A DNA stretch of 64,000 nucleotides from Acidimicrobiia bacterium (GTDB taxonomy: Bacteria > Actinomycetota > Acidimicrobiia > Spongiisociales > UBA11373), in assembly GCA_041551965.1 (NCBI GenBank), contig JBFELU010000005.1:188-64187 (forward strand), written 5' to 3'. Numbering within the stretch: position 1 is the first letter of the stretch; every line of letters starts with the position of its first letter. The position numbers and the translations under genes are program-made. The notes beneath the pieces are model-generated. The model worked only from the letters and a program-made list of their open reading frames with translations, made no database searches and was not told the origin of the DNA. Shown in pieces: positions 1 through 56,774 of this stretch.

Positions 1-928
<928 letters not shown>

Positions 929-16117: not shown

Positions 16118-16240
16118 AGCCCTCCTTCTCCCATCCGGACTGTCACCGTCGGTCCCGGAATCGCACCGGGTCGGCCCCGTCAGGGGTTCGCGGACTCTCA
16201 CCGCCGGTCGGGAATTGCACCCTGCCCCGAAGAACGGGCT
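16118..16240 (-). ncRNA. FMN riboswitch (RFN element) in the rib operon leader
   Basis: Minus-strand sequence ...CGUUCUUCGGGGCAGGGUGCAAUUCCCGACCGGCGGUGAGAGUCCGCG...CCGACGGUGACAGUCCGGAUGGGAGAAGGAGGG matches the conserved RFN core (CUUCGGGGCAGGGUGAAAUUCCCGACCGGCGGU...GUCCGGAUGGGAGAAGGA). Confidence 0.9.
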
Positions 16241-32086: not shown

Positions 32087-32577
32087 AACGCGAGGACCTC
32101 CTCGGCCACTTCAACCGGAGTCCGTTCGTCCGTGGCGACCGTGAAGTGAGCGGCCGCCCGGTAGGCCTCCAGCCGTTCCGCCTCCAGGACGGCGAGAGAG
32201 CCCACCCGATCGGGCCCCGCCAGCAGCGGCCGATCGGCGGCCCCCTCGAGCCTGCCGGCCAGCGTCTCGGGAAGAGCCCGCAGCCACACCACCACCCCGT
32301 GCTCCCGCATCACCGCGCGGTTCCCCGGTCGAAGCACGGCACCGCCCCCACAGGCCACCACGGCATCGCGACCCGCAACCGTCCTCACCGCCACACTCTC
32401 GAGGTCGCGGAACGCCTCCTCACCGTCGTCGGCGAAGATCCGGCGCACCGATCGCCCCGCTGCGCCCTCCACGGTGTCGTCGAGGTCGACGAAGGGGCGG
32501 TCGGTCAGAGCGGCCACCAATCGGCCGATGGTCGTCTTGCCGGCACCCATCATGCCGGTCAACCAAAGCGTGATCAT
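32077..32577 (-). CDS. aroK: shikimate kinase
   Basis: P-loop GMMGAGKTT; ~166 aa. Confidence 0.9.
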   Translation of the reverse strand: MITLWLTGMMGAGKTTIGRLVAALTDRPFVDLDDTVEGAAGRSVRRIFADDGEEAFRDLESVAVRTVAGRDAVVACGGGAVLRPGNRAVMREHGVVVWLRALPETLAGRLEGAADRPLLAGPDRVGSLAVLEAERLEAYRAAAHFTVATDERTPVEVAEEVLALWR

Positions 32578-33722
32578 GGGAAGCGCTCGAGGCGCCGCCG
32601 GTAATGCGCGACCGCGGCCGACAGATCTCCGACGGTGTCGCCGCCGAACTTACGCACGAGTTCGTCGGCGAAGACCCAGCAGACCATGTGCTCGGCCACC
32701 ACCCCGGCTGCCGGAACGGCGCACACATCGCTGCGCTCCCGGATGGCCTTCTCCGGCTCACCGGTGGCGACGTCCACGGTCTGCAAGGCCCGCATGAGCG
32801 TGGAGAGCGGCTTCATGGCGGCCCGCACCCTCACCGGATCGCCCGTCGTCATCCCCCCTTCGATACCGCCGGCGCGATTGGAGACCCGGCGGGCCTCGCC
32901 CTCGACGAGCACGATCTCATCGTGCGCCTCCGAGCCGCGGCGTGCCGCCGAAGCCAGCCCGTCACCGACCTCCACCGCCTTGATGGCGTGAATCGACATC
33001 AACGCCTCCGCCAAACGCGCATCGATGCGCCGGTCCCAGTGAACGTGGCTCCCCAGCCCCGGGATCACTCCGAAGGCCACGACCTCGACCACCCCGCCGA
33101 GCGTGTCGCGATCCTCCTTGGCCCGGTCGATCTCGGCCACCATCGCCTGCTCGACGTCGGCGTCGAGGGTTCGTACCGGTGAGGCGTCGATCCGGTCGGC
33201 GTCGTCGGGCCCGGGCACGAGGTCGGCGGCCACGCTCCCAATGCGCACCACGTGGCTGAGCACCGACGTCCCCACGGTCTCGAGCAGAGCCCTCGCCAGA
33301 TACCCGGCCACGGCCCGGGCTGCGGTCTCGCGGGCGGAGGCTCGCTCCAGGATGTCCCGGGCGTCGTGGGAGTCGTACTTCTGCATGCCGGCCAGATCCG
33401 CATGCCCGGGGCGGGGCGCCGTCAACGGGCGCCGGGCCTCGCCGGGGCCAACGGCCATTTCTTCGACCCACTTGGGCCACTCGGTGTTTCGCACGACGAC
33501 CGCCACCGGCCCGCCCAGAGTCCGTCCGAACCGCACACCCCCCAGGATCTCGAGCTCGTCCTCTTCGAGCGCCATGCGCCGCCCACGGCCGTAGCCGTGA
33601 CGCCGACGAGCCAGTTCGGCCGCCAACCCATCGGACGACACCTCGAGACCGGCCGGGAGGCCCTCGACGATGGTCACGAGGCCCGGCCCGTGAGATTCAC
33701 CCGCAGTCAGAAAACGCAGCAT
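32574..33722 (-). CDS. aroC: chorismate synthase
   Basis: MLRFLTAGESHGPGLVTIVEGLPAGL signature N-terminus; 382 aa. Confidence 0.9.
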   Translation of the reverse strand: MLRFLTAGESHGPGLVTIVEGLPAGLEVSSDGLAAELARRRHGYGRGRRMALEEDELEILGGVRFGRTLGGPVAVVVRNTEWPKWVEEMAVGPGEARRPLTAPRPGHADLAGMQKYDSHDARDILERASARETAARAVAGYLARALLETVGTSVLSHVVRIGSVAADLVPGPDDADRIDASPVRTLDADVEQAMVAEIDRAKEDRDTLGGVVEVVAFGVIPGLGSHVHWDRRIDARLAEALMSIHAIKAVEVGDGLASAARRGSEAHDEIVLVEGEARRVSNRAGGIEGGMTTGDPVRVRAAMKPLSTLMRALQTVDVATGEPEKAIRERSDVCAVPAAGVVAEHMVCWVFADELVRKFGGDTVGDLSAAVAHYRRRLERFP

Positions 33723-33754: not shown

Positions 33755-34336
33755 TTACTTCAGGATCGCCTGGCCCACCGCCAGAGTGAAGGCGCTGTCC
33801 CCGAAGAGGAACACGCCGTTGTTTTCGGAGAGGCTGACCACCTTGAAGTTCTCCGCAAAGGTCTCGCCGACCGCCACGATGTAGGTCTCGCCGTCGACCG
33901 TCACCACGGCCTTTCTGGTGCCGTCCTCGTCGCGGATCTCGAGCAACACCACCCTGCGGGTCTCCGGCTCGAAGCCCTCGGTGGTCGTTGTCGCGCCGTC
34001 ACCGGCGGTGGTCGTGGTCGTGCCATCACCGGTCGTGGTCGTGGTGCCCCCGGTGGTCGTCGTGATCACACCGGTGGTCGTCGTCGTGCCTTCGATGAGC
34101 GGCTGGAACGGATCGCGAGGCGGGGCCACCTGGAATGCCGAGGTCAGCCCGAGCCCATCGTCCGCGGCCGCGAGCGGAGCGATCGTCCCCGGCGCGGCCG
34201 GGAGAGGCCCATCCAATCCCGGGCCGGCGGCCGCAAACACTCCGCTGGTGGCGATCAGCCAGACCGAGACGACGGCAGTGGCCACCAGGAGGATCGCCAC
34301 GACCGAGGCAGTCAGGCTGCGCGTTGCGCTTCTCAC
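33755..34336 (-). CDS. PilP-like type IV pilus inner-membrane assembly protein (membrane-anchored, Thr/Gly-rich linker)
   Basis: N-terminal TM anchor, PRDPFQPL motif (compare RSPFQPP in PilP), a long T/G-rich linker, and a C-terminal beta-rich domain (VVTVDGETYIVAVGETF...). Start overlaps the pilO stop; last gene of the pilMNO(P) unit. Confidence 0.55.
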   Translation of the reverse strand: MRSATRSLTASVVAILLVATAVVSVWLIATSGVFAAAGPGLDGPLPAAPGTIAPLAAADDGLGLTSAFQVAPPRDPFQPLIEGTTTTTGVITTTTGGTTTTTGDGTTTTTAGDGATTTTEGFEPETRRVVLLEIRDEDGTRKAVVTVDGETYIVAVGETFAENFKVVSLSENNGVFLFGDSAFTLAVGQAILK

Positions 34337-35133
34337 GGCAAGCCCCCGGACGCTTCACCGATGGTGGGGGGCGGGCCCTCCACCGGCTCGAACTCGATCC
34401 CCTGCCCGGGTTCGGCGGCATCGCCCTCGAGGTTGTCACCCTCCTGCTGCGCCCCACCTTCACCCTCGACCTCTTCCGCGGTGAGGATCGGCAGCAGCGG
34501 TGATCTCGTGTAGAGCTTGATGCTCAGGGCGATCGACAACGAATCCTCTTCGATCCACGGGACGGTGGTGGTCGTCGTGCTGGTCGACGTCGTGCTCGTG
34601 GTGTCCCCACCGGCGACCGTCGTCGTGGTCGTCGTCTCCTCCACCTCCCCGGCACCGGCGGAAGTGGCGGTGATGGCCACGCTGTCGACCACCACGATTC
34701 GCTCCATGTCGTCGAGCCCGAACAGGAACCCGAGGAGCTCGAAATACTCTCCGGTCATGGCGAGCGAGACGCCGATCTCATAGGCGTCGAGACCTTGCAC
34801 CGGAGCGGGCTCCGCCGGCGAGATCGCCTCGAGATTCACCCCCACCTCTTCGGCCAGCGCCGTCACCTCCTCGATGAAGACCGCCAGCTCGGCACGCTTG
34901 GGGATACCCGCCTCCAGCTTGCCGATGGCGGCGAGGTAGGCGACGTCGTTCTCCTGGACCGCCTGCAGCTGGGCGATGGCGGCCCGCAGCCGGTCGGCCT
35001 CGGCAACCGCGGCGTCACGATCATCCCTCAGCTCGGCGATCCGGGCGTTGCGGGGAGAAATGAGGAAGAACCACCAGGCCGCGGTGACCGCCAGGATGAC
35101 GAAGAGGACGAGGGCGGTGACCCGGCGGCTCAT
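34333..35133 (-). CDS. pilO: type IV pilus assembly protein PilO
   Basis: Single N-terminal TM helix, coiled-coil (AELRDDRDAAVAEADRLRAAIAQLQ) and PilO-like periplasmic domain, with a Thr-rich plus acidic C-terminal extension. ATGA coupling with pilN. Confidence 0.7.
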   Translation of the reverse strand: MSRRVTALVLFVILAVTAAWWFFLISPRNARIAELRDDRDAAVAEADRLRAAIAQLQAVQENDVAYLAAIGKLEAGIPKRAELAVFIEEVTALAEEVGVNLEAISPAEPAPVQGLDAYEIGVSLAMTGEYFELLGFLFGLDDMERIVVVDSVAITATSAGAGEVEETTTTTTVAGGDTTSTTSTSTTTTTVPWIEEDSLSIALSIKLYTRSPLLPILTAEEVEGEGGAQQEGDNLEGDAAEPGQGIEFEPVEGPPPTIGEASGGLP

Positions 35134-35753
35134 CCGGGAACCACCACCGGGATCCGCTCCTCGAGCCGGCTGGACACGGCCGCCTCGGTGAGCCCCGTCG
35201 ATGAATCGAAGTTGATCAACGTCTCACCGGTCACGGCCGAACCCGACTCGGAGGCATTCGTCACCCAGGTACCTGCGATGCCGGGGAATTGCTCTTCGTC
35301 GAGCGACCGAAGCCACGCCGACACGTCTCGGAAGTCGAAGCCTCTCCCCGCAACCGCCACCCTTCCCACGAGCCCGGGAGTGCCCGGCAACGACGTCCCC
35401 ACGAAGGAGTCCAGCCAGACGCGCTCGGGAATGAGGCGTCCGAAGTCGTTCAGCAGGCGACCCCACGCGACATCCTGGGCGAGCACCACCGAAGTGAGGA
35501 GCACCTGCTCGGCATACTGAGCCGCCAGGTCGTCGGCGGCGACGAGGGCATTGACCTCGGCGTCGAGTTCGGCGTTGATCGCTTGCTGTTCCTCGAGGGC
35601 TTCCTGGGTCGCGTCGACCCGGGTGTTCCACCACATCACACCCATCACGAGCGCGGCCACGTAGAGGAGTCCGAGCGCCACCCAGAAGCCCACCTTGCGG
35701 CGAGCCGCCAGCCTGCGAACGGCTTCGGGCGGAAGCAGGTTGATCGGTCTCAT
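35130..35753 (-). CDS. pilN: type IV pilus assembly protein PilN
   Basis: Signature N-terminus MRPINLLPPE (INLLP motif that binds PilM), a TM helix and coiled-coil. Confidence 0.8.
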   Translation of the reverse strand: MRPINLLPPEAVRRLAARRKVGFWVALGLLYVAALVMGVMWWNTRVDATQEALEEQQAINAELDAEVNALVAADDLAAQYAEQVLLTSVVLAQDVAWGRLLNDFGRLIPERVWLDSFVGTSLPGTPGLVGRVAVAGRGFDFRDVSAWLRSLDEEQFPGIAGTWVTNASESGSAVTGETLINFDSSTGLTEAAVSSRLEERIPVVVPG

Positions 35754-35759
35754 GGCAGA

Positions 35760-36863
35760 TCAGGCGACATGGGCGAATCGGGCGGTCGGGGGGACGACGA
35801 ACTTGCCCCACATGGCGAGCCCGACCGAGGCCGGGAGCACCGGCTGCAGGTCGAGCAATTGGCTCTCGGTCATCTGAAGGCGCCCCACTCCGACGTGATC
35901 GAGCACCCGCACCGGCTCGACCCGGGTTCCCAGGGCCCGAGCGATCCGGTTGGCGAGATGCGGCAGGCGGGCGCCGTTGCCGGAGACGACGAGGCGGCCG
36001 AGCGAGTGCTCGCCCGCCTGGGTCAGGTAGTAGTTGATGGATCCACGGATCTCTTCGATCAGCGAATCGGCCGTCCGGGTGAGGAGGCGACGCGCCACCG
36101 CCTGGTCGCCTTCGCCCTCCGGCATGCCGTCGGGAGCCACGCCGACGACGCGTTTCAACTCCTCAGCGTCCTCGTAGCCGAGTGACAGCCCGGCTCTGAG
36201 GTCCTCGGTGAACTGGTCCCCGCCGACGGGGAGGATGCGGACGAACCGGGTGATCCCGCCCCGCACGATGGCGATCTGCGACATGGAGATGCCGATGTCG
36301 AGAAGGGCCTGAGGGCCGTCGCCACCCAACATCAGATCTGCCCCGAAGGCGGCTCGCACCAGGCCGAACGCCTGGAGGTCGATCGACAGCACGTCCAGGC
36401 TGGCCGAGGAGGCGACGCCGAGCAACTCGTCGATCATCTCCCGCTGGGCGGCGACCACCAGGATGGAGAGCATCAGCTCCCCGTCGGGGGTGTTGAACTC
36501 CTCGAGCGGCACGTAGTCGAGGACGGCCTCTTCGACGGGAATCGGGATGGCGTCCTCCACCTGGAATGGGAGAGCCTCGACCATCTCGGCTTCCTCGAGG
36601 TGGGGCACATCGACTTGCCGGACTATCACCCGCTGGCTGGCGATGCCGATGACGACACGCTTGCGCGGCAGCTTGTTTCGCTTCCACAACGCCCCGACCG
36701 CCTCGGCGACGGCGCCGGGGTCGACGATCTCGCCGGCGACCACGGCTCCGGGCGGGAGCGGCATGTCGGCGAAGCGCCGCAGCAGCGGCGATGCCTTGGC
36801 GGTGTCGACGACCGCAGCGCGCACCGCGCTCGAACCGATGTCGAGACCAACCGCAACAGCCAT
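35760..36863 (-). CDS. pilM: type IV pilus assembly ATPase-like protein PilM (actin fold)
   Basis: MAVAVGLDIGSSAVRAAVV ASKHA/actin-like phosphate-1 motif; 367 aa; immediately upstream of pilN. Confidence 0.85.
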   Translation of the reverse strand: MAVAVGLDIGSSAVRAAVVDTAKASPLLRRFADMPLPPGAVVAGEIVDPGAVAEAVGALWKRNKLPRKRVVIGIASQRVIVRQVDVPHLEEAEMVEALPFQVEDAIPIPVEEAVLDYVPLEEFNTPDGELMLSILVVAAQREMIDELLGVASSASLDVLSIDLQAFGLVRAAFGADLMLGGDGPQALLDIGISMSQIAIVRGGITRFVRILPVGGDQFTEDLRAGLSLGYEDAEELKRVVGVAPDGMPEGEGDQAVARRLLTRTADSLIEEIRGSINYYLTQAGEHSLGRLVVSGNGARLPHLANRIARALGTRVEPVRVLDHVGVGRLQMTESQLLDLQPVLPASVGLAMWGKFVVPPTARFAHVA

Positions 36864-37038
36864 AGCACCTCCGCGGGGTCGGGCCCGCCTGTCAGTCTCC
36901 GTAGTTACAACTCTGTGATCTGGAGGCTAGCCCTGTGGATAACGAGGACAAAGCATTTCGGGGCGGTGCCATCGGACACCCTCGGTTACCGAAATGAGGC
37001 GTGGTGCGCGCGAAGCGCGGTCTCGAAGCGTGGTCTCC

Positions 37039-37803
37039 TCAGCCGAGATACCACTCGGCGATCCGCTCCCCCCAGGCCAGCCCGACGGCGGCCCCCGCCA
37101 CCATGGAGGGACCGAAGGCAATGGCATCCTTGCGACCCGCCCGCCGCAACGCCAAGAGGGCCAGGGCCACCAATCCCCCGATCGCAAAGGCCGCAAACCC
37201 GCCCACCAGGAGGGCCTCCCAAGACCGGTAGGCGAGGAAGGATCCCAGCAGGAAGGCCAGCTTGACATCCCCGAATCCGAAACCGCCGCGGGCGGCCAGA
37301 GCGACGAGGAAGAGGAGACCGAAATAACCGGCGCCCCCGCCGAGAGCTCGCAGCAACGCAGATGCATCGCCATCGAGCACGGCACCGCCGCTCAACAGCA
37401 CCCAGCCCACCATCGTCCCCGGCACCAGGATCCGGTTGGGGATCCGCTGCAGGTCAAGATCGGTGAGGGTCAAGGTCACGGCGACGCCGGTCGCCCACCA
37501 GTAGGCGGGCAAGACCCAGGCGGCGCCGATGAGCAGGCCCAAGAGCGCAAAGATGGCTCCGGTTCCGGCCTCGACGAGCGGATAGCGAATCGAGATGCCG
37601 GAGCCGCAATCCCGGCATCGTCCTCGCAGCAGCAGCCATCCCACCACCGGCACGTTGTCCCGGGGGCGGATTCGGTGACCGCAGGCCGGGCAAGCCGACG
37701 GCGGCCGCACCACCGAAAGGCCCTGCGGCACCCGATAGGCGACGACGTTGACGAAAGACCCCACCACGAGCCCGACGACGGCGCCGGCGAGAGGGATCAC
37801 CAC
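37039..37803 (-). CDS. pilD: prepilin peptidase (A24 family)
   Basis: N-terminal zinc-binding CxxC..CxxC (CPACGHRI...CRDCGSGI), polytopic membrane protein, catalytic Asp-containing motifs; 254 aa. Confidence 0.85.
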   Translation of the reverse strand: MVIPLAGAVVGLVVGSFVNVVAYRVPQGLSVVRPPSACPACGHRIRPRDNVPVVGWLLLRGRCRDCGSGISIRYPLVEAGTGAIFALLGLLIGAAWVLPAYWWATGVAVTLTLTDLDLQRIPNRILVPGTMVGWVLLSGGAVLDGDASALLRALGGGAGYFGLLFLVALAARGGFGFGDVKLAFLLGSFLAYRSWEALLVGGFAAFAIGGLVALALLALRRAGRKDAIAFGPSMVAGAAVGLAWGERIAEWYLG

Positions 37804-38246
37804 GCGACCCCGGCGCAGTTCTCCATCGCGATATCGAAACGGGAAGACCCGGCGCAGGTCGGACGTCCGGCGTCGTCGCCGTGGAGCACGAGGCGGAGGC
37901 CGAACCAGGTTCCCGTCACCGACCGAGCGTACAACAGCACCCGGCCCCGGTCACCGGTATCGACGTCGGCCACTTCGACGTAGACCCGGGAGTCGCTATC
38001 ACCGTCGAACTCCAACTCCGGCATCACCGACTTCAAGGCGGCGGCGGCGCCGACGAAGCCGCCCGCCTCCGGCTCCAGCGCCGCCTCGGCCTTGGCGGCG
38101 ATGGTGAGGGCGACCTTGACCCGCATGTCGTGGGCCTGCCGCCGGTTGGCCAGCAGGCTGGGAATCGCCATCGACACCAGCACCGCCAGGGCCACCAGCG
38201 TCACCAGCAGCTCCAGCACCGCAAAGCCCGTCTCTCGTTGCCGCAT
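37797..38246 (-). CDS. type IV pilin-like protein (second pilin)
   Basis: Class III signal peptide MRQRETG|FAVLELLV with Glu at +5; 149 aa; C-terminal Cys pair. Confidence 0.75.
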   Translation of the reverse strand: MRQRETGFAVLELLVTLVALAVLVSMAIPSLLANRRQAHDMRVKVALTIAAKAEAALEPEAGGFVGAAAALKSVMPELEFDGDSDSRVYVEVADVDTGDRGRVLLYARSVTGTWFGLRLVLHGDDAGRPTCAGSSRFDIAMENCAGVAW

Positions 38247-38262
38247 GAATGGTCCCCCACGT

Positions 38263-38295
38263 CAGTGGGGGCGAGTCCTGGACTCGCCCCCACTG
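38263..38295 (-). promoter_or_regulatory. long perfect hairpin between pilA stop and the downstream pilin gene
   Basis: CAGTGGGGGCGAGTCC / GGACTCGCCCCCACTG perfect inverted repeat (~14-bp GC-rich stem) with no following U-tract. Confidence 0.5.
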
Positions 38296-38315
38296 GGTTA
38301 CATAGCGCTCGGGTC

Positions 38316-38783
38316 TTACCAGCCGGTCTGCACGAAGCCGGGGGGCGGGTTGTCGGTGGCGGGGCAGTCGCCGGCGAAGGCGCCGGTGCCGTAGTACGTG
38401 CCGTTGGCGGCGGACTCCCACACCGCGAAGGTGTTGCCCGAATCGGCGGTCCGGGCGATACACACCACGTCGGAGTCGGCGACGTTCAGGTCGATGTACA
38501 CGCCCAGCGCCGGATCGGCGTTGATCACGGCATTCGGCTCGAGCTCCAGGATCTCGAGGCCGTCCTCTGTGTAGTCGCCCTCTTCCAGCCAGTACGCCTT
38601 CTCGGAGAGGAGCACATTGCGCACCTCGCTCTGGGCGGCGCGGTCTTGAGCGGACTTCCTGAAGCCGAGGAACGAAGGAATGGCAATGGCGATGAGAACT
38701 GCAATGATCATCACCACGACCATCAACTCGATGAGCGTGAAGCCCTCGTCCTTGGCCAAGCCCTTGCGGATGGCCTTCATCAT
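38316..38783 (-). CDS. pilA: major type IVa pilin
   Basis: MMKAIRKGLAKDEG|FTLIELMVVVMIIAVLIAIAIP canonical T4a prepilin leader and alpha-1 helix; C-terminal Cys pair (C...C); ~155 aa. Strong GGAGG RBS 7 nt upstream of the ATG; TAA stop. Confidence 0.9.
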   Translation of the reverse strand: MMKAIRKGLAKDEGFTLIELMVVVMIIAVLIAIAIPSFLGFRKSAQDRAAQSEVRNVLLSEKAYWLEEGDYTEDGLEILELEPNAVINADPALGVYIDLNVADSDVVCIARTADSGNTFAVWESAANGTYYGTGAFAGDCPATDNPPPGFVQTGW

Positions 38784-38875
38784 TACTGCGAACCTCCTCA
38801 GGTGTCGCTGAAGGATCGAATCTCGACCCACGAGGGGTTATCGGCGCCGCAGGTCGCGAAATTGAGCCTGATTTC

Positions 38876-40105
38876 TCAGCCGTTCTGGATGAGGTTGGCG
38901 ATGTTGAACATCGGCAGGTACAGGCAGATGAGGATGCCGCCGACCACCACGCCCATCACGATGATGAGGATCGGCTCGATGAGGCTGGTGAGCGCGCTGA
39001 TCGTGTCGTCGACCTCGCGGTCGTAGTAATCGGCGACCTTGCTCAACATGGTGTCCAGCGCCCCCGTTTCCTCGCCGACGGCCATCATCTGCGTCACCAT
39101 CGGCGGGAAGATCTCGTGGCGATGGAGCGGCTCGGCCAGGGACTCGCCCTTCTTCACCGAGGACTGGACGTCTCCGATGGCGTCGGCCAGGGTGGCGTTT
39201 CCCGCCGTCTCGGCGACGATGTCGAGGGCTTGGAGCACGGGCACGCCGGTGCGGCTCAGCACCGAGAAGGTCCGGGCGAAACGACTGATCGCCACCTTCT
39301 GCACCACCTTGCCGAAGATCGGGAATCGCAGCTTCAGTGCGTCCCATTGCCGGCTGCCGTTGGGCGTCTTCTTCCATTTGGTGAAGGCGAAGATCGAGCC
39401 ACCGAGCCCGCCCAGCCACAGCCACCACAGGCCGGTCACCAGGCCGGAGAAGTTGATGAGCGTCTGGGTCGGCAAGGGAAGCGCGCCGCCCAGATCGGAA
39501 TACATCTTCTCGAAGATCGGCACGACGAACACGAGCATGGCCATGACGATGAACACGATCAGATTGAGAACGACCACCGGGTAGGCCATTGCCGATTTGA
39601 TCTTCGAACGCAGCCGGGCCGCTGCCTCGAGGGTGTCGGCCAGCCGGGCCAGCGTCTCATCGAGCGCGCCGCCGACCTCGCCGGCCCGGACCATCGAGAC
39701 GTAGAGCTGCCCGAAGACCTTGGGGTGATCCTCGAGCGCGCCGGAGAGGCTGGTGCCCTGTTCGACCTTGAGCCGCACCTGCCCGAGCACGTCACGCAGA
39801 TAGGGGTTCTCGGCCTGATCCTCGAGAATGACCAGGGTCCGGATGAGGGAGAGGCCGGAGTTGACCATGGTGGCCATCTGGCGGCTCATCAGCGCCAGTT
39901 CCTTCGACTTCACCTTCTTGCCGAGCTTGGGGAGGGTGAGCTCCTTCTCGAAGGCCGAGACGCGCTTCTCAGAGACGTTGAGGGGTACCATCCCGCGTTC
40001 GCGCAGGCTGCGGGCCACGGCCGCCGAGGAGTCGGCCTCCAACTCGCCGCTGTGCACCCGCCCCGATTTGTCCTTGGCCCGATAGGCGAAGACCGCGGTG
40101 CTCAT
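38876..40105 (-). CDS. pilC: type IV pilus platform protein PilC (GspF family)
   Basis: Two GspF-type repeats and three TM segments; 409 aa; ATGA-coupled to pilT. Confidence 0.85.
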   Translation of the reverse strand: MSTAVFAYRAKDKSGRVHSGELEADSSAAVARSLRERGMVPLNVSEKRVSAFEKELTLPKLGKKVKSKELALMSRQMATMVNSGLSLIRTLVILEDQAENPYLRDVLGQVRLKVEQGTSLSGALEDHPKVFGQLYVSMVRAGEVGGALDETLARLADTLEAAARLRSKIKSAMAYPVVVLNLIVFIVMAMLVFVVPIFEKMYSDLGGALPLPTQTLINFSGLVTGLWWLWLGGLGGSIFAFTKWKKTPNGSRQWDALKLRFPIFGKVVQKVAISRFARTFSVLSRTGVPVLQALDIVAETAGNATLADAIGDVQSSVKKGESLAEPLHRHEIFPPMVTQMMAVGEETGALDTMLSKVADYYDREVDDTISALTSLIEPILIIVMGVVVGGILICLYLPMFNIANLIQNG

Positions 40106-41667
40106 GTCCGACCTCCGGTCAGGTTGAGGAACTCCTGCACGTCCTGGGCCCGTTCGACCGCTTCGGCGACCGTCACCCGTCCCGCCTTGACCAGGCCGGC
40201 GAGCGCCTGGTCCATCGTCTCCATCCCGTGCTTGCCGCCCGCCTGCATGAGCGAGTGGATCTGGTGGAGCTTCGACTCCCTGATGAGATTGCGGATCGCC
40301 GGCGTGGTCACCATCACCTCGACGGCGGCCACCCGGCCGGCCCCATCGGCGGTGGGCAGCAGTTGTTGGGCAACGACTCCCTGCAGCGACTCGGCCATCT
40401 GCACCCGGACCTGCTGCTGCTGCCCGGAGGGGAAGACGTCGATCACCCGCTCCACCGACTGGGCCGCGCTCTGGGTGTGGAGGGTGGCGAAGACCACGTG
40501 GCCGGTCTCGGCGGCGGTGAGCGCGGTCTCCATCGTCTCGAGATCACGGAGCTCACCGACGAGGATCACGTCGGGGTCTTGACGAAGCGCCTGCCGCAGA
40601 GCCCTGGCGAACGATTGGGTGTCCGCCCCCACTTCCCGCTGATTGATTATCGCCTTGTTGTGGCGGTGCATGAACTCGATGGGATCCTCGACCGTCATCA
40701 CATGAACGGCCCGGGTCTGGTTGATGAGGTTGATCAGCGACGCCAGCGTCGTCGATTTCCCGCTGCCGGTGGCGCCGGTCACCAAGATGAGACCACGCGT
40801 CAAGTTGGCGAACTCACGAACCGCCGGCGGCATCCCCAGTTCCTCGAGCGTCGGCACGTGGTCGGGGATGGACCGCATCACGGCCCCGATCGACCCCCGC
40901 TGGAAGAACACGTTGACACGGAAGCGTCCCCGCCCGGCGACGCTGTGGGAGAAGTCGAGCTCCTGCTCGTTCTCCAGCGCCTCCCGCTGATCGCCGGTGA
41001 GCATGGCGTACACCATCGAACGCAACGGCACCGGCTTCAGCTTCTCGTAGTTCTCCACCACGCGAAGGTCTCCGTGCACCCTGATCTGCGGCGGCGTTCC
41101 CACCGCCAGATGCAGGTCGGAGCCCCCGGCATCGACCAGCACGTCGAGGAGCTCGTTCACGTGAAACTCTGGCTCCTCGATTCCGATTCTCTCCGTCGAG
41201 GTGACCCTTGGGTCGGGGGAGGGACGCGCCCGCTCCCGGTAGGCGGTGTCGATCGCACCCACGAGGGCATCACGGTGGCCCAGCAGCGGCCGCACCCTGA
41301 ATCCCGTGGTCTTGTGGATCCGGGCCACCTTCTCCCGGTCGAACGGATCGGCCATCGCCACGGTGAGTTCGTCCTTGTGGAGACCGAGCGGGAGCGCCAC
41401 GAGATGAGCGGCGAGCTCACGATCGACCGCGTTGACGGCGGCGGAGTCGGGAGCGCCGTCGGTGGCGGGATCGTGGTAGCCCATCCCGAGCCGCTCGGCG
41501 GCAACGCGAAGGATCTCCTCCCGTTTCACCCGGCCCCGTTCCACCATCAGCTTGGCGAGAGGAGCGCCGGCGCGCTCCGAGGCGGCCAGATCGGCCTCGA
41601 GTTCCGCTTCGCTGATGAGGCCCCGATCGAGCAGGATCTGACCGAGCTGGCGCGAGACATCGTTCAT
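40102..41667 (-). CDS. pilT: PilT-type retraction ATPase with N-terminal MshEN/GspII domain
   Basis: PilT/PilU core (Walker A GATGSGKST, Asp box, His box, AIRNLIRE) preceded by a ~150-aa T2SSE_N-like domain (RQLGQILLDRGLISEAELEADL; MADPFD). Start chosen at MNDVSRQL (ATG 41665-41667), giving a 4-nt overlap with the pilB stop. Confidence 0.8.
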   Translation of the reverse strand: MNDVSRQLGQILLDRGLISEAELEADLAASERAGAPLAKLMVERGRVKREEILRVAAERLGMGYHDPATDGAPDSAAVNAVDRELAAHLVALPLGLHKDELTVAMADPFDREKVARIHKTTGFRVRPLLGHRDALVGAIDTAYRERARPSPDPRVTSTERIGIEEPEFHVNELLDVLVDAGGSDLHLAVGTPPQIRVHGDLRVVENYEKLKPVPLRSMVYAMLTGDQREALENEQELDFSHSVAGRGRFRVNVFFQRGSIGAVMRSIPDHVPTLEELGMPPAVREFANLTRGLILVTGATGSGKSTTLASLINLINQTRAVHVMTVEDPIEFMHRHNKAIINQREVGADTQSFARALRQALRQDPDVILVGELRDLETMETALTAAETGHVVFATLHTQSAAQSVERVIDVFPSGQQQQVRVQMAESLQGVVAQQLLPTADGAGRVAAVEVMVTTPAIRNLIRESKLHQIHSLMQAGGKHGMETMDQALAGLVKAGRVTVAEAVERAQDVQEFLNLTGGRT

Positions 41668-43337
41668 ACGACCACCCTCAACACTTCCTTGAACGTGGTG
41701 AGTCCGAGACGCACCTTCTCCATGCCGTCCTGACGCAGGGTCCTCATGCCCTGTTCGACGGCAACCGCCTTGATTTCGTCCGAGGGCCGGCGTTCGACAG
41801 CCAAACGCTGGATCTCCTCGGAGACCAGAAGCACTTCGTTGATGCTGAGCCGCCCCCGGTAGCCGGTTTCGGAGCAGGCCTTGCATCCGACCGCGTCGAA
41901 GACGGTGATCCGTTCATCCTCGGGAAGCCCCATCTCGTGGAGCATCTCTGGGGTGGCGTCCCGTTGCTGACGGCAGCGATCGCAGATACGTCGAGCCAGC
42001 CGTTGGGCCACGATCGAGTCGAGCGCCGATGACACCAGGTACGGTTCGACGCCCATGTCGATGAGCCGCCCCACGCTCGACGCGGCGTCATTGGTGTGCA
42101 ACGTCGACAGCACCAGGTGACCGGTGAGGGCCGCCTCCACGGCGATCTTGGCGGTCTCGGTGTCCCGGACCTCACCGATGAGCACGATGTCGGGATCGGA
42201 TCGAAGGATCGACTTGAGGGCGGTGGAGAACAACAGCCCCGCCTTGCGATGGACCTGCACCTGGATGACGCCGGGGAGCCGGTACTCCACGGGATCCTCG
42301 ACGGTGATGATGTTCCTGTCGGGCTGGTTGAGGACGTTCAGGGTCGAGTAGAGGGTGGTGGTCTTGCCCGACCCGGTCGGCCCGGTGACCAAGATGGCGC
42401 CGTAGGGCTTCGAGTAGGACGACTCGAAGCGCTCCAGCGACTGCGGCAGGAATCCGAGATCGGACAACTTGAGGATCGCGTCGTCCTTGTCGAGGATCCG
42501 GATCACGACCTTCTCGCCGTAGATGGTCGGCAACGTGGCGACGCGCAGATCGATTTGGCGACCCCCGACCCGGAGACTCACCCGACCGTCCTGAGGGACC
42601 CGTCGTTCGGCGATATTGAGCTCGGCCATGATCTTGAGGCGGCTCACCACCGCACCCGACACTGACCGCGGCGTCGTCATCACCTCTTTGAGGACGCCGT
42701 CGATCCGGAATCGCACCCTCAGATCGCGCTCGCCCGGCTCGACGTGGATATCGCTCGCCCGCTCATTCACGGCTCGGGTGACCAGCGTGTTGACGAGCCT
42801 GACGATTGGGGCTTCCTCGACCGCAGCTTCCAGGCCCTCGAGCGGGTCCTCCTCGGCATCCTCGGTGACCAGGTCGGCGAGATCGGCGACGGAGTTGTCG
42901 AGCGCGCCGACCCGCCTGATTGCATCCTCGATGTCCGACCGACTCGCCATCTTGGGCACCACCGTCTGTCCGGTGATGGCCCTGATGTCATCGACGATGA
43001 GGACGTTGCGGGGGTCGGCCATCGCCACGATCAGACGTTCGTCTTCGAAACCGACCGGGATGACCATGTAGCGCCTCGCGAGCGTTTCGGGGATCAACGC
43101 GGCGGCAGAGGGGTCGAGGGTCATCTCCGAGAGGTTCACGAATTCGATCCCCACGTGCCTGGCCAACACACGGGTGACGTCGTCCTCGGGGATGATCTCT
43201 TCCTCGATGAGGATCCGGGAGAGGGTTTCGCCGGTCTGAGCCTGCACCGCCTGGGCGCGCTCGAGATCGGCCTGGGTCACCAGACCCTCGTCGAGCAACA
43301 TCGTCCCGAACACGTCACCGCTTGGGGGCACGGACAC
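41664..43337 (-). CDS. pilB: type IV pilus assembly ATPase PilB (GspE family)
   Basis: N-terminal GspII/MshEN domain (FGTMLLDEGLVTQADLERAQAV; MADPRNV), Walker A GPTGSGKTT, tetracysteine zinc motif CDRC...CKAC. GTG start preceded by GAAGGAG. Confidence 0.9.
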   Translation of the reverse strand: MSVPPSGDVFGTMLLDEGLVTQADLERAQAVQAQTGETLSRILIEEEIIPEDDVTRVLARHVGIEFVNLSEMTLDPSAAALIPETLARRYMVIPVGFEDERLIVAMADPRNVLIVDDIRAITGQTVVPKMASRSDIEDAIRRVGALDNSVADLADLVTEDAEEDPLEGLEAAVEEAPIVRLVNTLVTRAVNERASDIHVEPGERDLRVRFRIDGVLKEVMTTPRSVSGAVVSRLKIMAELNIAERRVPQDGRVSLRVGGRQIDLRVATLPTIYGEKVVIRILDKDDAILKLSDLGFLPQSLERFESSYSKPYGAILVTGPTGSGKTTTLYSTLNVLNQPDRNIITVEDPVEYRLPGVIQVQVHRKAGLLFSTALKSILRSDPDIVLIGEVRDTETAKIAVEAALTGHLVLSTLHTNDAASSVGRLIDMGVEPYLVSSALDSIVAQRLARRICDRCRQQRDATPEMLHEMGLPEDERITVFDAVGCKACSETGYRGRLSINEVLLVSEEIQRLAVERRPSDEIKAVAVEQGMRTLRQDGMEKVRLGLTTFKEVLRVVV

Positions 43338-43395: not shown

Positions 43396-44172
43396 TCAAG
43401 CCGTGCGAACGGCTCCGATCATGACGTCGATCGGTGCGGCACGACCGATCCAGATCACAAAGGAATCGGCCGCCTGCGCAACGAGGTGATCCAGCCCATC
43501 GACTGAGGGAAGACCGAGACGCCGGGCGGTGCCCATGGCCGGAGTGGGGCGGTCGCCGTAGGCGAGATCGAAGAGCCCTTGCGCCTCCTCCACGAGCCCG
43601 TCCGGGAGCTCTTCGCCGTGCATGCCGAGCGGGGTGGCGTTGACGATCACCGCACCGGTGACGGGCCTCCCCCAGGCGACCACGGATCCGGCGGTTCCGG
43701 TTCGCTCCAACACGGCTTCGGCGACGCCGGGACGACGGGCCGACACGAACCGCTCTCGATCGTCGCCGACGGCCACCAGCGCCGCCGCCGCCGCCCCGCC
43801 GGCACCAAGAATCAGAACCGGAGCGTCTCCGGGCAGTTCTCGCTCCGCCCAGAGCGCCCGGATGCCGGTGACGTCGGTGTTGTGGGCGACGACCGCCGAC
43901 CCTTCGGCCACCAGGGTGTTGGCGGCCCCGCACCTCCCCACCTCCGGCGTGACCCGATCCGCCAGCGACGCCGCCAGGTCCTTGTGGGGCATCGTCACGT
44001 TGGCGCCGTCGAGGAGGCCGCTCCGGATCTCGGCAACGGCCTCGGCCATCCCGGCCGTATCGACGCGGCGCGGCCGGTAGCTACCGGAGATCCCGACGGC
44101 TTCGAGCGCCGCTTGCCACATGACCGGCGAGCGTGAGTGTGCCACCGGATCACCGAGGAGCACCAGCCTCAC
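43396..44172 (-). CDS. aroE: shikimate dehydrogenase
   Basis: Shikimate-binding SRSP motif, NTD motif and GAGGAA NADP motif. GTG start at 44170-44172 (VRLVLLGDPVAHSRSP) overlaps the mltG stop. Confidence 0.85.
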   Translation of the reverse strand: MRLVLLGDPVAHSRSPVMWQAALEAVGISGSYRPRRVDTAGMAEAVAEIRSGLLDGANVTMPHKDLAASLADRVTPEVGRCGAANTLVAEGSAVVAHNTDVTGIRALWAERELPGDAPVLILGAGGAAAAALVAVGDDRERFVSARRPGVAEAVLERTGTAGSVVAWGRPVTGAVIVNATPLGMHGEELPDGLVEEAQGLFDLAYGDRPTPAMGTARRLGLPSVDGLDHLVAQAADSFVIWIGRAAPIDVMIGAVRTA

Positions 44173-53398: not shown

Positions 53399-54793
53399 CT
53401 AGAGCTCGGCCCAGTCCACGACGATCGGGACGTCCTGAGTGGCTCGAAACGGGCTGGGCACCGGGCCACTGTTGTCCACGGTCGGGTTGCCGCTCCAGTC
53501 GGACTCGTGGACGTAGTCCTCGGCGCTGTCGCAGGAATCCCCGATGATGAAGGCTCCTTCGACGATGCTGCTGGCGCCGTTGATCTTGAGTTGCTCCTGC
53601 ACGGCCATGATGCCGGAGAGATCCGGGTTCCCCGAGATCTCGAGATCCCGGTCGACGCCCAGGAGCAAGTTGCGGGTGTTGGGATAGGGCACCATGGTCG
53701 GATTGCCGCTGATGCTCAGGTCGCCCCCGACCTTGTCCGGACAGGTACCCGACCCGGCGACCAACAAGGTGACCTGCCAAGGAGCACCCACCGATCCCGG
53801 GGAGGCCCCGATCGTCACCGATCCCTCGTGGAAGTAATAGACGCCGTCGAAGGGAATGTCGTTGTCGTAGACCCACTTCGCGCCAAGCCTCGAATCGCAG
53901 CATCCGTTGTACTTCCAGCTGCGGAACGGCGAGGTCTGCGTATCGGTGTCGAGGGTGGCTCCCGAACATGGCACGCTGGTCACCGTGCCGCCCATCGTCG
54001 GGTGAGCCGGGCCGGCACGCACCCGGCCATCGGGACACATGTCGTACTCACTGAGCGACCACAGCGATCGAATGTCGATGATCGGAAGCAGAACCGTCGC
54101 CTGCCCACCGGGCATTGCGCACCCGGGCGCCTGCGAGTAGGAACCGGAAACCGACACTGCGCCCGAGGCGCTGATGCAACTTTGGATGAAGCTGCTGCCT
54201 CCAATGGAGAGGTCGCCGTTTGCATGGATGCCGACCGAAGAGCCGCTGGCCACGGTGGGGTTTCCCTTGAAGGCGAGATTCCCGCCCGAAAGCACGGCGT
54301 AGGCGGCGTTCCACCCGCCCACCTCCGACGACAGCCCGATCCGCCCCCTCACCGCCCTGACCCGGCGGTCCGGCGCCGACCGGGTGGGGACGTAGCCGAC
54401 CGAGTACACGACCTCACTGTTGAACGGCCGGATGACCATGAACTCGCCGCCCGGCACCTGCCCCAGGTCGGAGGGCGAGCGAGCATCCGCGGCCGCCACC
54501 ACCCATTTCCGCTCGGTGTCCGAATCCGGGAAGGGGTGAGGCGCCGTCTCGCCCGTCGTGTACGACTCGTCGGCGTTGGCGAGATCCAGGCCGACGTCCA
54601 GGCCTGCTTCGGCAACCGCCAGGGTGAGCTCCCACTCCGAATCGACGTGGACACTCTGTGACTGGACCAGGGACCGAAACGCCACCACCGACGTGAGGAG
54701 AATGAGAGAGAAGCCGAGCAGCAGCACCGTGGCGACGGCGATCCCTCGCTCGTCCCGAATGACCCGCCGAATGGCCTTCCCCGAGGGTTTCAT
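53399..54793 (-). CDS. large Cys-rich membrane-anchored extracellular protein with TadG-like N-terminus (module B, gene 3)
   Basis: N-terminal RDERG plus hydrophobic anchor (IAVATVLLLGFSLILL) with no Glu at +5. Repeated SGNPT motifs and 10 Cys. Paralog of 56775-58151 (shared VGYVPTR, DxRSxWxxSEYDxCPxGRVxAGPxHPT, C-terminal VPxVxxWxEL). ATGA-coupled to the upstream gene. Confidence 0.6.
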   Translation of the reverse strand: MKPSGKAIRRVIRDERGIAVATVLLLGFSLILLTSVVAFRSLVQSQSVHVDSEWELTLAVAEAGLDVGLDLANADESYTTGETAPHPFPDSDTERKWVVAAADARSPSDLGQVPGGEFMVIRPFNSEVVYSVGYVPTRSAPDRRVRAVRGRIGLSSEVGGWNAAYAVLSGGNLAFKGNPTVASGSSVGIHANGDLSIGGSSFIQSCISASGAVSVSGSYSQAPGCAMPGGQATVLLPIIDIRSLWSLSEYDMCPDGRVRAGPAHPTMGGTVTSVPCSGATLDTDTQTSPFRSWKYNGCCDSRLGAKWVYDNDIPFDGVYYFHEGSVTIGASPGSVGAPWQVTLLVAGSGTCPDKVGGDLSISGNPTMVPYPNTRNLLLGVDRDLEISGNPDLSGIMAVQEQLKINGASSIVEGAFIIGDSCDSAEDYVHESDWSGNPTVDNSGPVPSPFRATQDVPIVVDWAEL

Positions 54794-55326
54794 GGCATGT
54801 TCCTGAGCGAGACGTCGAATTCCATGGATCGATCACCACCCCCGTCCACCGCCACGGGAGATTCCAGGCGGATGGTTGCCGTCCGAATGTCCTGAGGCGA
54901 CGACGAGCTGTACGTGAAACCCGAGGCCGCCGGATCGAGACCGCCGACCACCGTCACGCTGCCGCCGTTGTCGGTCAGGCGGGCCAGCGAGCCGTCATCG
55001 AGGAGCGCCCAGGACACTCGTTCACCGGTGTCCTGGATCCCATCCCAATCTGCGTCGAGCCACACGGTCATGGTGAGCGGCGACGCCACCACGAAACCCC
55101 GGGCCTCGCGAACATCCCGGGTGATCCTCTGCCTCACCTGCCGCAGCGTGACCAGCGCCGCGTCATCGGCTTCATGGAGGCGATCCACTCGGGTCACCCC
55201 GACGAAGAAGGTAGTGAGCATGGTGGCGATCACCGCCAGCCCGGCCAACGAGATCCCGAGCTCCACGAGGGTCATGCCGCCGTCTCCCGACGGCGCCAGC
55301 CTCCTCAGCGCGGCGATGCGCCTCAT
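54790..55326 (-). CDS. TadE-like pseudopilin / prepilin-type protein (module B, gene 2)
   Basis: Leader ...SGDGG|MTLVELGISLAGLAVIA with Glu at +5. Paralog of 58148-58705 (shared DVREARxF and terminal DVSLRNxP). ATG at 55324-55326 overlaps the upstream stop. Confidence 0.6.
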   Translation of the reverse strand: MRRIAALRRLAPSGDGGMTLVELGISLAGLAVIATMLTTFFVGVTRVDRLHEADDAALVTLRQVRQRITRDVREARGFVVASPLTMTVWLDADWDGIQDTGERVSWALLDDGSLARLTDNGGSVTVVGGLDPAASGFTYSSSSPQDIRTATIRLESPVAVDGGGDRSMEFDVSLRNMP

Positions 55327-56723
55327 GAGCACACCGACCCCACCGCTTCCGGCTGGAGACCTTGGAGGATCTGCGAGGCCGGCAGCAGGTTGGCCGGGTA
55401 TTCCACCCAGGAACCGCCGCTGAACTCGACTGTGCCGAGATTTCCCTCACCACCCGCGATGATCGCCCCATGCCAGGCCGCGCCCCCCGAGAGGAGGACT
55501 CCCCCGTATGGTGCGTAGGCCACCCCCTGGGCGTACCCCACGCTGCTCCCCGTCAATTTGAGCGCCGTGTCGGTGACACCGAACGAGATAGCTCCACCGG
55601 AGGTGGGGGACTCGGACCCGTAGTCGGTCACGATGTACTCGGTGCCGCCACTGAACTCGATCAGCACATCGGAGACGAAGAATGCGGCGTCGGTCGTGAC
55701 GGTCGGACCCCCCTGGAGCTTGAGTGAACCGGTGGCGTAGATTGGTCCGGAGCCGTTGATGGTGACGTTCCCTTCCACCACGAGGGAGCCTTCGATGTAG
55801 ATGGGGGCCGTGACGGTGGTGTCCTTGAACCGCTGATTGCCGTAGAGGATGGTTCCCGCCCTCGCCTGGTCCCGAAGATCGGCCCGCCAAACCTCGATCT
55901 CCTCAGTGGTGGGCAGGTCCACCGGTGTGCCGGCGTTCTGCTCCAAGATCCCGTGCACGTTGTCGGAATTGACGCTTGCGGTACCCCCGACGATCAGATT
56001 GCCGTCGACGGTGGCATCGTTGTTTCCGAAATTCCCGTTGGCGAGCACGTCGGCGGCATGGGTCCCCGAGGGCGTGCTGATGGTGTAGCCGGGATGCAGA
56101 TCGATATCTCCCGCCGCCATGATCGCAGCATCCGGGAAAGCCGATCCGGCAGTGGCGGAGGCGGTTCCGGCCGAGATGGTGGAGATCAAGGTTCCGGTGT
56201 GATAGGTGCGCGTTCCGACTTCCCCGTTCCACTCGACGAGGACGTACACCCTCCTCAGGGTCGCCGAAGGCTGAGTCACGTAGGTCCACGTCGTGAACTG
56301 GATGTCCTGGATGGTGGCGTCGACTCGGGGCGCAAGCACCCCACTCTCACAGGTGCGCAGGCTCTCATCGGCGGGAAGGCCGGTGGGTTCCGCCAATAGG
56401 ACCTCGCGGTCTGAATCGATGAGCGGCGCATCCGGGTCGATCTCGCTCAACGCCAGCCCCTCCCAACCGAGGCTTCGGGCGAGTTCGAGTCGTTCCAGAC
56501 CGAGACCGGTCGCTTCCTGGCGGAACCGGTTCTCCCTCGACCCACTCAGCGCACCACGGAGCGTGCCCGAGAAGGCGAGCACCAACATCATGGCCAGCAG
56601 CACCGCCACCGAAAGCTCCACGAGGCCGAACCCGGCCTCGGCGGTCGGCGGGACGGGGTGTCTTCGCACCCCCAACCGACGGCCGACGCCTGCTTCGTTG
56701 GGGACGCCATTGGGTCCGCTCAT
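55323..56723 (-). CDS. large prepilin-like protein with Gly/Val/Thr-rich repetitive C-terminal region (module B, gene 1)
   Basis: Prepilin motif AEAG|FGLVELSVAVLLAMMLV (Glu at +5), then a ~400-aa region of repeats (GSLVVEGNVTINGSGPIYATGSLKLQGG...). Paralog of 58702-60024. Start ambiguous among in-frame ATGs at 56771, 56741 and 56723; 56723 is preferred because GGTGGAAG lies upstream. Confidence 0.55.
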   Translation of the reverse strand: MSGPNGVPNEAGVGRRLGVRRHPVPPTAEAGFGLVELSVAVLLAMMLVLAFSGTLRGALSGSRENRFRQEATGLGLERLELARSLGWEGLALSEIDPDAPLIDSDREVLLAEPTGLPADESLRTCESGVLAPRVDATIQDIQFTTWTYVTQPSATLRRVYVLVEWNGEVGTRTYHTGTLISTISAGTASATAGSAFPDAAIMAAGDIDLHPGYTISTPSGTHAADVLANGNFGNNDATVDGNLIVGGTASVNSDNVHGILEQNAGTPVDLPTTEEIEVWRADLRDQARAGTILYGNQRFKDTTVTAPIYIEGSLVVEGNVTINGSGPIYATGSLKLQGGPTVTTDAAFFVSDVLIEFSGGTEYIVTDYGSESPTSGGAISFGVTDTALKLTGSSVGYAQGVAYAPYGGVLLSGGAAWHGAIIAGGEGNLGTVEFSGGSWVEYPANLLPASQILQGLQPEAVGSVCS

Positions 56724-56774
56724 GCTTCCACCGTCGACCATTATCTGTAGTGACTTGACTACTTTCCGCATTCT

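Follow-up and report, generated by a model that had tools for sequence, protein, structure and literature searches.

This analysis concerns a 64-kb stretch of DNA from an Acidimicrobiia bacterium (GenBank contig JBFELU010000005.1, positions 188 to 64,187; hereafter, the window) and a type IVa pilus (T4aP) locus on its minus strand, at positions 33755-43337, whose last gene encodes a protein of 193 amino acids (aa). With a probability of roughly 65%, this gene is the actinobacterial counterpart of pilP, that is, the fourth member of a PilMNOP unit, the product of which would act with PilM, PilN, and PilO independently of a secretin, in a cell without an outer membrane. As far as the arrangement of the genes goes, the 193-aa protein is shown to be made together with PilM, PilN, and PilO. 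Its open reading frame (ORF; 33755-34336, minus strand) is described here as PilP-like on the basis of a fold match, a sub-threshold match to the family model TIGR03021, and the position directly after pilO. In diderm bacteria, the HR domain of PilP binds the secretin's N0 domain, and its N-terminal arm joins PilN and PilO (PMC4471445).

Architecture and predicted fold of the 193-aa protein

In the AlphaFold2 model of the full-length protein, built with the sequence alignment A1, a transmembrane (TM) anchor (residues 3-30) is followed by a disordered region (residues 31-125) with low values of the predicted local distance difference test (pLDDT). The peptide PRDPFxPL, which reads PPRDPFQP in this protein, occupies residues 73-80 and is followed by a Thr-rich spacer and by a C-terminal beta domain (residues ~126-193) that ends in Lys. 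N-terminal membrane attachment and a long disordered arm, which are traits of PilP and GspC, are thus both found in the 193-aa protein. The C-terminal domain of about 70 aa was modeled with a pLDDT of 94-98 in the context of the full-length protein, and a domain-only model from a broader alignment reached a pLDDT of 86. Matches of the Thr-rich spacer to the Pfam families New_glue and Mucin were discarded as compositional, low-complexity matches.

The predicted fold was compared with the PDB using Foldseek. For the full-length model, the HR domain of GspC ranked first (3oss_C; template modeling score TMt 0.77, root-mean-square deviation 2.1 Å, 61 columns), followed by PilP of Pseudomonas aeruginosa, GspB, LspC, and PilP of Neisseria meningitidis. 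For the domain-only model, ranks 1 to 12 were occupied exclusively by PilP, GspC-HR, or GspB, with TMq values of 0.48-0.66 and probabilities of 0.95-1.0. These matches included PilP of P. aeruginosa (2lc4, 2y4y, and 2y4x), of N. meningitidis (2ivw and 4av2_M), and of Myxococcus xanthus (3jc8_Pa), as well as GspC-HR (3oss_C) and GspB (4wfw); beyond rank 12, the probability did not exceed 0.35. At the level of sequence, TIGR03021 (pilP_fam) was the commonest NCBIfam match over 46 diverse members of the family described below; it was recorded for 19 of the 46 (41%), below the cut-off and with a best E-value of 2.2e-5, and a GspC_delta match was recorded for two members. Because the fold, the recurrent sub-threshold sequence signal, the order of the domains, and the position of the gene agree, we conclude that the 193-aa protein is a divergent homologue of PilP and the GspC HR domain, short of recognition by a formal sequence model.

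A reading of this DNA from the sequence alone, made before the present analysis (the sequence-only reading), had described the last gene of the locus as PilP-like, with a beta-rich C-terminal domain and an R(D/S)PFQP-type peptide. Both features are present, and at the fold level the assignment holds, with only PilP, GspC-HR, and GspB at the top of the Foldseek ranking and with a position and an architecture that match PilP. That reading had also suggested comparing the protein with the PilP C-domain by hidden Markov models and by structure. The structural part of this comparison was positive; the part based on curated models was not, since TIGR03021 stayed below threshold and Pfam PilP gave no match.

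A widespread family of PilP-like proteins

To delimit the family, a profile of the C-domain was compared with 1.84 billion representative proteins, which gave 1,060 clusters (50% identity) with an E-value of 1e-3 or lower; for 343 of them, it was 1e-10 or lower. For the 193-aa protein, 140 homologues were found at E ≤1e-3, and all those that carry a name from their source are labeled "hypothetical". When hosts with a name or in culture were sought for the family, only "hypothetical protein" entries from metagenome-assembled genomes (MAGs) were returned. The homologues in alignment A1 share one architecture, namely, an N-terminal hydrophobic helix, the peptide QPRDPFxPL, a variable Thr-rich spacer, and a 70-residue C-domain ending in GQxILK. 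The peptide is invariant in these homologues, as is the motif in the family (P76 and F77 in both alignments A1 and A4).

Further features were counted on 325 members, with denominators of 301 or 293 depending on the feature. The C-domain always forms the very C-terminus, and Lys is the final residue, right behind the last strand, in 295 of 301 members. The (R/K)(D/N)PF motif is located at a median residue of 74, the invariant (R/K)(D/N)PFxP(L/V) peptide lies about 45 residues past the anchor, and the spacer between motif and domain has a median length of 41 residues (range 5-132). At least two Cys residues are present in the domain of 161 of 293 members, which makes a disulfide probable and fits an extracytoplasmic location. 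A lipobox, as in classical PilP, was found in only 2 of 293 members; the 193-aa protein is anchored in the cytoplasmic membrane by one N-terminal TM helix, like GspC. Six members (P0121, P0130, P0133, P0146, P0232, and P0236) carry two to three tandem copies of the C-domain.

Wherever the gene neighborhood was compared, the PilP-like gene directly follows pilO, which applies to about 20 loci from Acidimicrobiia as well as to four distant loci from other Actinomycetota (L032-L035). The distant members share only 30-45% identity in the C-domain. We see in it a TM-anchored, secretin-less family of PilP-like proteins that are missed by the present Pfam and NCBIfam models.

A compositional feature of the family recurs in a neighboring protein. 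PilO of the window (34333-35133, minus strand) contains a Thr-rich insertion within its core domain, and its C-terminus carries an acidic tail about 60 residues long. Both this insertion and the spacer of the PilP-like protein are Thr-rich, which hints at O-glycosylated linkers that span the wall.

Absence of a secretin and the host envelope

Pfam detected none of the domains secretin, Secretin_N, and STN in the called genes of the 64-kb window, which was covered completely by the gene calls on identical metagenome contigs together with our own Pfam scans. These domains were also missing from the related loci that were inspected, for which at most 10 kb of flanking DNA per side was covered. 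The sequence-only reading had likewise seen no secretin gene in the window and had taken the host for an actinobacterium; both statements are supported, the latter by the origin of all 25 related loci from Acidimicrobiia or Actinomycetota MAGs. The absence of PilQ from the window is expected for the T4aP of a monoderm. Repeated loss of the secretin in the T4aP of monoderms, including Actinobacteria, has been described (Denise et al., 2019; PMC6668835).

The host was taken to be a monoderm in view of its taxonomy and because no outer-membrane genes occur within the 64 kb. Cultured members of the host group are Gram-positive. The window encodes a class A penicillin-binding protein with PASTA domains, a type that is typical of Gram-positive bacteria. 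It also contains an actinobacterial gene block, aroC-aroK-aroB-pepQ-efp-nusB-pyrR-pyrB, followed by mihF-gmk-rpoZ.

Proposed role and alternative readings

The set of eight proteins that N. meningitidis needs, and that suffices, to assemble filaments in the absence of PilQ includes PilP (PMC10191384), and PilN and PilO are unstable when PilP is missing (PMC4471445; PMC10191384). By analogy with this secretin-independent role of Neisseria PilP, the PRDPFxPL peptide and the proximal arm of the actinobacterial protein would bind and stabilize the extracytoplasmic PilN-PilO dimers. Indirect support for this comes from the invariance of the peptide and from the translational coupling with pilO. The HR domains would then be held on extended, possibly O-glycosylated stalks and would surround the growing fiber with a ring or collar at the inner face of the cell wall, guiding the fiber through the wall. 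Alternatively, the HR domains could hold the machine to the wall. Either arrangement would replace the ring of PilP and PilQ N0 domains of the diderms.

A more far-reaching proposal, which we advance tentatively and at somewhat less than even odds, is that PilP has its own function as an ancestral core part of the type IVa alignment complex and was kept by the Actinomycetota after the loss of the outer membrane and the secretin. The HR domain would then either make up a collar that stands by itself in the region of the cell wall or interact with a partner other than a secretin, for which peptidoglycan, the fiber, and the large, putative minor-pilin module described below are candidates.

Several points weigh against the assignment as a PilP counterpart. 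None of the curated sequence models (PF04351, TIGR03021, and the GspC models) recognizes the 193-aa protein: Pfam PilP (PF04351) matches neither this protein nor 36 family members, and the score of TIGR03021 is below the cut-off (E 0.0044, 18.1 bits vs. 34.65). Sequence profile searches of the PDB with the full-length alignment A1 and with the C-domain alignment A5 did not retrieve PilP and gave chance matches only (FliL with E 1.7, SHP2 with E 0.8). The Foldseek E-values of 0.008-0.3 are modest, as can be anticipated for a beta domain of 70 residues with 15-24% identity to its matches, and for such a small beta sandwich some room is left for convergence. The absence of secretins refers to the 64-kb window and the flanks of the related loci. 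Finally, binding to PilN and PilO, the ring, and the glycosylation are proposals from sequence and model.

Some of the same observations could be accommodated if the C-domain were a cell-wall anchor that, through binding to peptidoglycan or some wall polymer, would tether the machine or hold it in position without being part of the assembly subcomplex. Scaffolds of the GspB/OutB type do so in some type II secretion systems (T2SS), GspB (4wfw) is among the top structural matches, and 5 of 36 family members have marginal Pfam matches to T2SSB, with E-values of 0.15 or worse. The long spacer could reach the wall, and the near-invariant C-terminal Lys suggests specific docking. However, the invariance of the PRDPFxPL peptide suggests that it has a protein as its conserved partner, and no LysM, AMIN, OmpA-like, or SPOR domain was detected by Pfam in the 193-aa protein and 36 members. 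We regard a pure wall anchor as unlikely, although it overlaps with the PilP-counterpart assignment and is compatible with it rather than exclusive.

It is even less likely that the protein is a non-homologous look-alike, that is, a lineage-specific small beta-barrel that converged on this shape and has another accessory role, for example, in pilin chaperoning or regulation. All 12 of the top 12 fold matches stem from one family and are followed by a sharp drop in probability, and sub-threshold PilP matches recur in 41% of the members. These results contrast with the failure of all curated sequence models, the absence of a significant sequence match to solved PilP or GspC, and Foldseek E-values that are all higher than 0.001, which are the observations in favor of convergence. 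The position of the gene and the order of the domains (anchor, disordered arm, C-terminal beta domain) are also the same as in PilP and GspC, and some members even have a lipobox.

Very improbable is a conventional PilP, the HR domain of which would dock, as in diderms, to a PilQ-type secretin or another outer-layer channel with an N0 domain encoded elsewhere in the genome: the HR fold is a secretin-N0-binding module in every characterized case (PMC4471445) and the DNA inspected comprises 64 kb of this genome and at most 10 kb of flank per side in related genomes, but secretin, Secretin_N, and STN domains are absent from the window and the inspected loci, the related genomes all belong to Acidimicrobiia or Actinomycetota, the window encodes the PASTA-domain class A penicillin-binding protein, and secretin loss has been reported for monoderm T4aP, including those of Actinobacteria (PMC6668835).

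Gene content and translational coupling of the pil locus

The locus at 33755-43337 consists of ten minus-strand genes between aroC and aroE, nine of which are named by Pfam and NCBIfam models. The window has a G+C content of about 69%, and almost every gene is located on the minus strand. The first gene, pilB (41664-43337), encodes an extension ATPase of 545-557 aa, the start of which is uncertain, with a T2SSE match of 469 bits, an MshEN domain, and a TIGR02538 score of 632 bits vs. a cut-off of 676. It is followed by pilT (40102-41673), encoding a PilT-family retraction ATPase of 523 aa (TIGR01420, 487 bits vs. a cut-off of 319), and by pilC (38876-40105), which encodes the platform protein of 409 aa (T2SSF, 230 bits, E 5e-69; PilC/GspF models, 414-440 bits). 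The major pilin gene pilA (38316-38783) specifies 155 aa from an ATG, within an ORF that reaches 38831. The product has a class III signal peptide with the cleavage site G|FTLIE and is recognized by N_methyl (E 1.5e-7) and TIGR02532 (30.9 bits vs. a cut-off of 16.3). The second pilin (37797-38246; 149 aa, cleavage site G|FAVLE) has a weak N_methyl match (E 0.019) and a BLASTP match to PilA with E 2.7e-10; its gene was found in some related loci and was missing in others. The prepilin peptidase PilD (37039-37803; 254 aa) is identified by A24_N_bact (E 5e-34) and Peptidase_A24 (E 7e-12).

The remaining named genes are pilM (35760-36863), encoding 367 aa (TIGR01175, 204 bits vs. a cut-off of 133; PF11104, E 5e-41), pilN (35130-35753), encoding 207 aa (PF05137, 25.2 bits vs. 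a cut-off of 22.8), and pilO, encoding 266 aa (PF04350, 44 bits, E 4e-11, above the cut-off). On the downstream side, the locus is flanked by aroC for chorismate synthase (32574-33722, minus strand; PF01264 on the identical gene in the loci L001 and L003), and on the upstream side by aroE for shikimate dehydrogenase (43396-44121, minus strand; Shikimate_dh_N on the identical gene in the loci L002 and L030).

Overlaps of 4 nt are present between pilN and pilO, between pilO and the 193-aa ORF, and between pilT and pilC. In addition, pilB and pilT overlap by 10 nt, and the gene of the second pilin overlaps the start of pilD by 7 nt. The sequence-only reading had listed the same pilus genes (pilB, pilT, pilC, pilA, a second pilin gene, pilD, pilM, pilN, pilO, and the PilP-like gene), all of which were recovered on the minus strand at or near the positions it gave, and the translational coupling that it had proposed is borne out by the two 4-nt overlaps of pilN/pilO and pilO/193-aa ORF.

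The pilA gene is free-standing, without overlap with its neighbors, and is preceded by a GAGGAGG Shine-Dalgarno motif. Just 3' of its stop codon lies a perfect, GC-rich 15-bp hairpin without a T tract (38263-38295, minus strand), which was spotted by eye and then confirmed by folding (dG -40.9 kcal/mol, z -4.3; none of 200 shuffled sequences folded as well). The hairpin is a probable terminator or attenuator that sets pilA apart from the second pilin gene and pilD. A scan of the locus for sigma-70 promoters returned nothing, and terminator-like matches were at chance level.

The core set of a type IVa pilus is present, comprising an extension ATPase, PilT, a platform protein, a prepilin peptidase, PilM, PilN, and PilO, and a major pilin whose signal peptide is of class III. 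The system is most likely a retractile T4aP, with PilB and PilT, one major pilin that looks strongly expressed, and a second pilin. A T2SS or a Com system was ruled out, because the presence of PilT and PilMNO indicates a pilus.

Outside of the pilus genes, the first 926 nt of a bacterial 16S rRNA gene (1-927, minus strand) run off the start of the window, and a flavin mononucleotide (FMN) riboswitch (16119-16238, minus strand) is located before a rib operon.

Conservation and age of the locus

To explore the conservation of the locus, genomes were scanned, one per species, with a query alignment of 12 closer sequences. The scan found 25 loci, all of them in Acidimicrobiia or Actinomycetota MAGs. 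Where the contig reaches far enough, the gene order is invariant, aroE-pilB-pilT-pilC-pilA-(second pilin)-pilD-pilM-pilN-pilO-PilP-like-aroC-aroK-aroB-pepQ, and the order of the pil genes from aroE to aroC is kept in about 20 of the 25 loci, which stem from distinct Acidimicrobiia genomes. Across related loci, PilM is 72-96% identical and AroC 65-90%, so that the divergence of the pil genes parallels that of the housekeeping flanks. In the distant loci, the context is pilD-(HTH_17)-pilM/N-pilO-PilP-like, followed by aroC-aroK-aroB-aroQ-pepQ-efp-nusB-pyrR; in two of them (L032 and L033), a few other genes lie between the PilP-like gene and aroC. The GC content of the pil locus, 0.65-0.69, is near that of the flanks.

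Recent insertion of the locus is ruled out by the conserved synteny and by the similarity of its GC content to that of the flanks. The view of the sequence-only reading that the pilus genes had been inserted into a housekeeping array is therefore not supported. Because about 20 of 25 loci as well as the distant Actinomycetota share the position between or beside the aro genes, and because the divergence parallels that of the flanks, the pil locus has, to judge from comparative synteny, long been part of the aro block in several actinobacterial lineages and was passed on vertically.

Two contigs (L012 and L020) and one protein (P0004) carry the labels Acidobacteria, Kiloniellaceae, and Gemmatimonadales and show the same aro-pil synteny or, for the protein, 72% identity. 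Because the synteny is that of the actinobacterial loci, these three contigs with labels of other phyla are probably mis-binned, that is, they represent MAG contamination.

The distant loci differ from the window in two further details. A small gene with an HTH_17 domain (excisionase-type, DNA-binding) lies between pilD and pilM in all four of them (L032, 3317-3532; L033, 7426-7635; L034, 7208-7450; L035, 7458-7700), whereas the window has only a gap of 175 bp at this site (36864-37038). In L032 and L034, PilM and PilN are fused into one protein of 567-589 aa, like GspL.

MshEN domains and cyclic di-GMP

In addition to PilB, the PilT protein of the window carries an MshEN-like domain, in an extra N-terminal region (PF05157, E 2e-12, residues 74-149), and this N-terminal extension is kept in all related loci. 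With the model of the cyclic di-GMP (c-di-GMP) binding motif, PilB scored 46 bits, above the cut-off of 38, and PilT scored 36 bits, below it. The pilus is probably under c-di-GMP control via the MshEN domains on both ATPases. MshEN has been described for extension ATPases, and no description of MshEN on PilT was found in the literature. A response regulator that carries a diguanylate cyclase (GGDEF) domain is encoded in the same housekeeping block (16282-17211, minus strand) and is a possible source of c-di-GMP for the MshEN domains of PilB and PilT.

Two trios of minor-pilin-like genes

The sequence-only reading had called the locus complete. This is not the case, as six more prepilin-like genes, arranged as two trios, are located at 53399-60024 (minus strand), between relA and hisS. 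The six genes are translationally coupled and have no Pfam family assignment. The first trio encodes the proteins A1 (58702-60024, 440 aa, which passes TIGR02532), B1 (58148-58705, 185 aa), and C1 (56775-58151, 458 aa), and the second trio the proteins A2 (55323-56741, 472 aa), B2 (54790-55326, 178 aa), and C2 (53399-54793, 464 aa). The trios are paralogous and arranged in tandem, with 43-51% identity between the pairs. The N-termini of the A and B proteins, which were read manually, resemble class III signal peptides (G|FTLVE, G|ATVVE, G|FGLVE, and G|MTLVE), and the C proteins have a PilX/GspK-like N-terminus without Glu5. The large A proteins show a weak match to DUF7305.

Protein A1 matches a 620-aa N_methyl protein within the pilus locus of L032 (E 1.6e-11), and trios of this kind occur within the pilus loci of L032, L033, and L035, the last of which has two. 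Because of this location of the equivalent trios, those of the window, located 10 kb away, most likely encode the minor pilins or the tip module that this pilus uses, as far as can be judged from gene content.

Comparison with known systems

In Actinobacteria, only Tad-type pili have been studied experimentally (PMC6916266), and T4aP were recorded in genomic surveys without being dissected (PMC6668835). We found no paper on type IVa machines of Acidimicrobiia or Actinomycetota, or on a PilP-like component of a monoderm pilus. Type IVa pili, which are experimentally unstudied in this phylum, are in several of its lineages an ancient component of the aro-efp-nusB-pyr housekeeping block that was handed down vertically. 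According to reviews, PilP is, like PilQ, absent from Gram-positive piliated species, which was termed "logical" and from which it was argued that PilP is merely a connector to the secretin (PMC4471445; PMC6916266). By contrast, Neisseria genetics and the minimal synthetic machinery point to a requirement for PilP in assembly as such (PMC10191384). If PilP is indeed an ancestral core component, this argument from its absence in monoderms would be overturned. The family described here bears on the debate over a secretin-independent role of PilP and offers a natural system for a direct test.

The PilP proteins of diderms (P. aeruginosa PA5041, N. meningitidis, and M. xanthus) share several features with the actinobacterial protein. 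Their genes directly follow pilO in a pilMNOP unit, and the proteins are attached to the membrane at the N-terminus, continue into a long disordered arm, and have an HR beta sandwich at the C-terminus, to which the domain is similar with TMq values of 0.48-0.63 and a sub-threshold TIGR03021 match. In contrast to them, the 193-aa protein is anchored by a TM helix instead of a lipid, has no secretin partner in the window, and fails the PilP models, and its family is characterized by a near-invariant C-terminal Lys, often a Cys pair, and a Thr-rich spacer. The bitopic, TM-anchored topology and the HR fold are shared with GspC of type II secretion (3oss_C, 6hcg_e, and 7oio). However, GspC has a further PDZ domain or coiled coil C-terminal to its HR domain and binds GspD N0, whereas here nothing follows the HR domain, and PilT and PilMNO are part of the system. 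The GspB/OutB scaffold of the Dickeya and Klebsiella T2SS (4wfw) is also bitopic, with an HR-like domain on a long linker, but GspB is a secretin-associated accessory protein of the T2SS, and only marginal T2SSB matches were obtained here.

A parallel at the level of the whole system is provided by the T4aP of monoderm Firmicutes (Streptococcus sanguinis, Clostridium perfringens, and C. difficile), which also have clustered pilB, pilT, pilC, and pilD genes, pilMNO, several pilins, and no secretin, as well as an MshEN c-di-GMP domain on PilB (PMC6916266; PMC11656802). These systems are described in reviews as lacking PilP (PMC6916266; PMC4471445), whereas the actinobacterial locus contains the PilP-like gene, carries MshEN on PilT as well, and is associated with trios of probable minor-pilin genes that include those for proteins of 440-620 aa.

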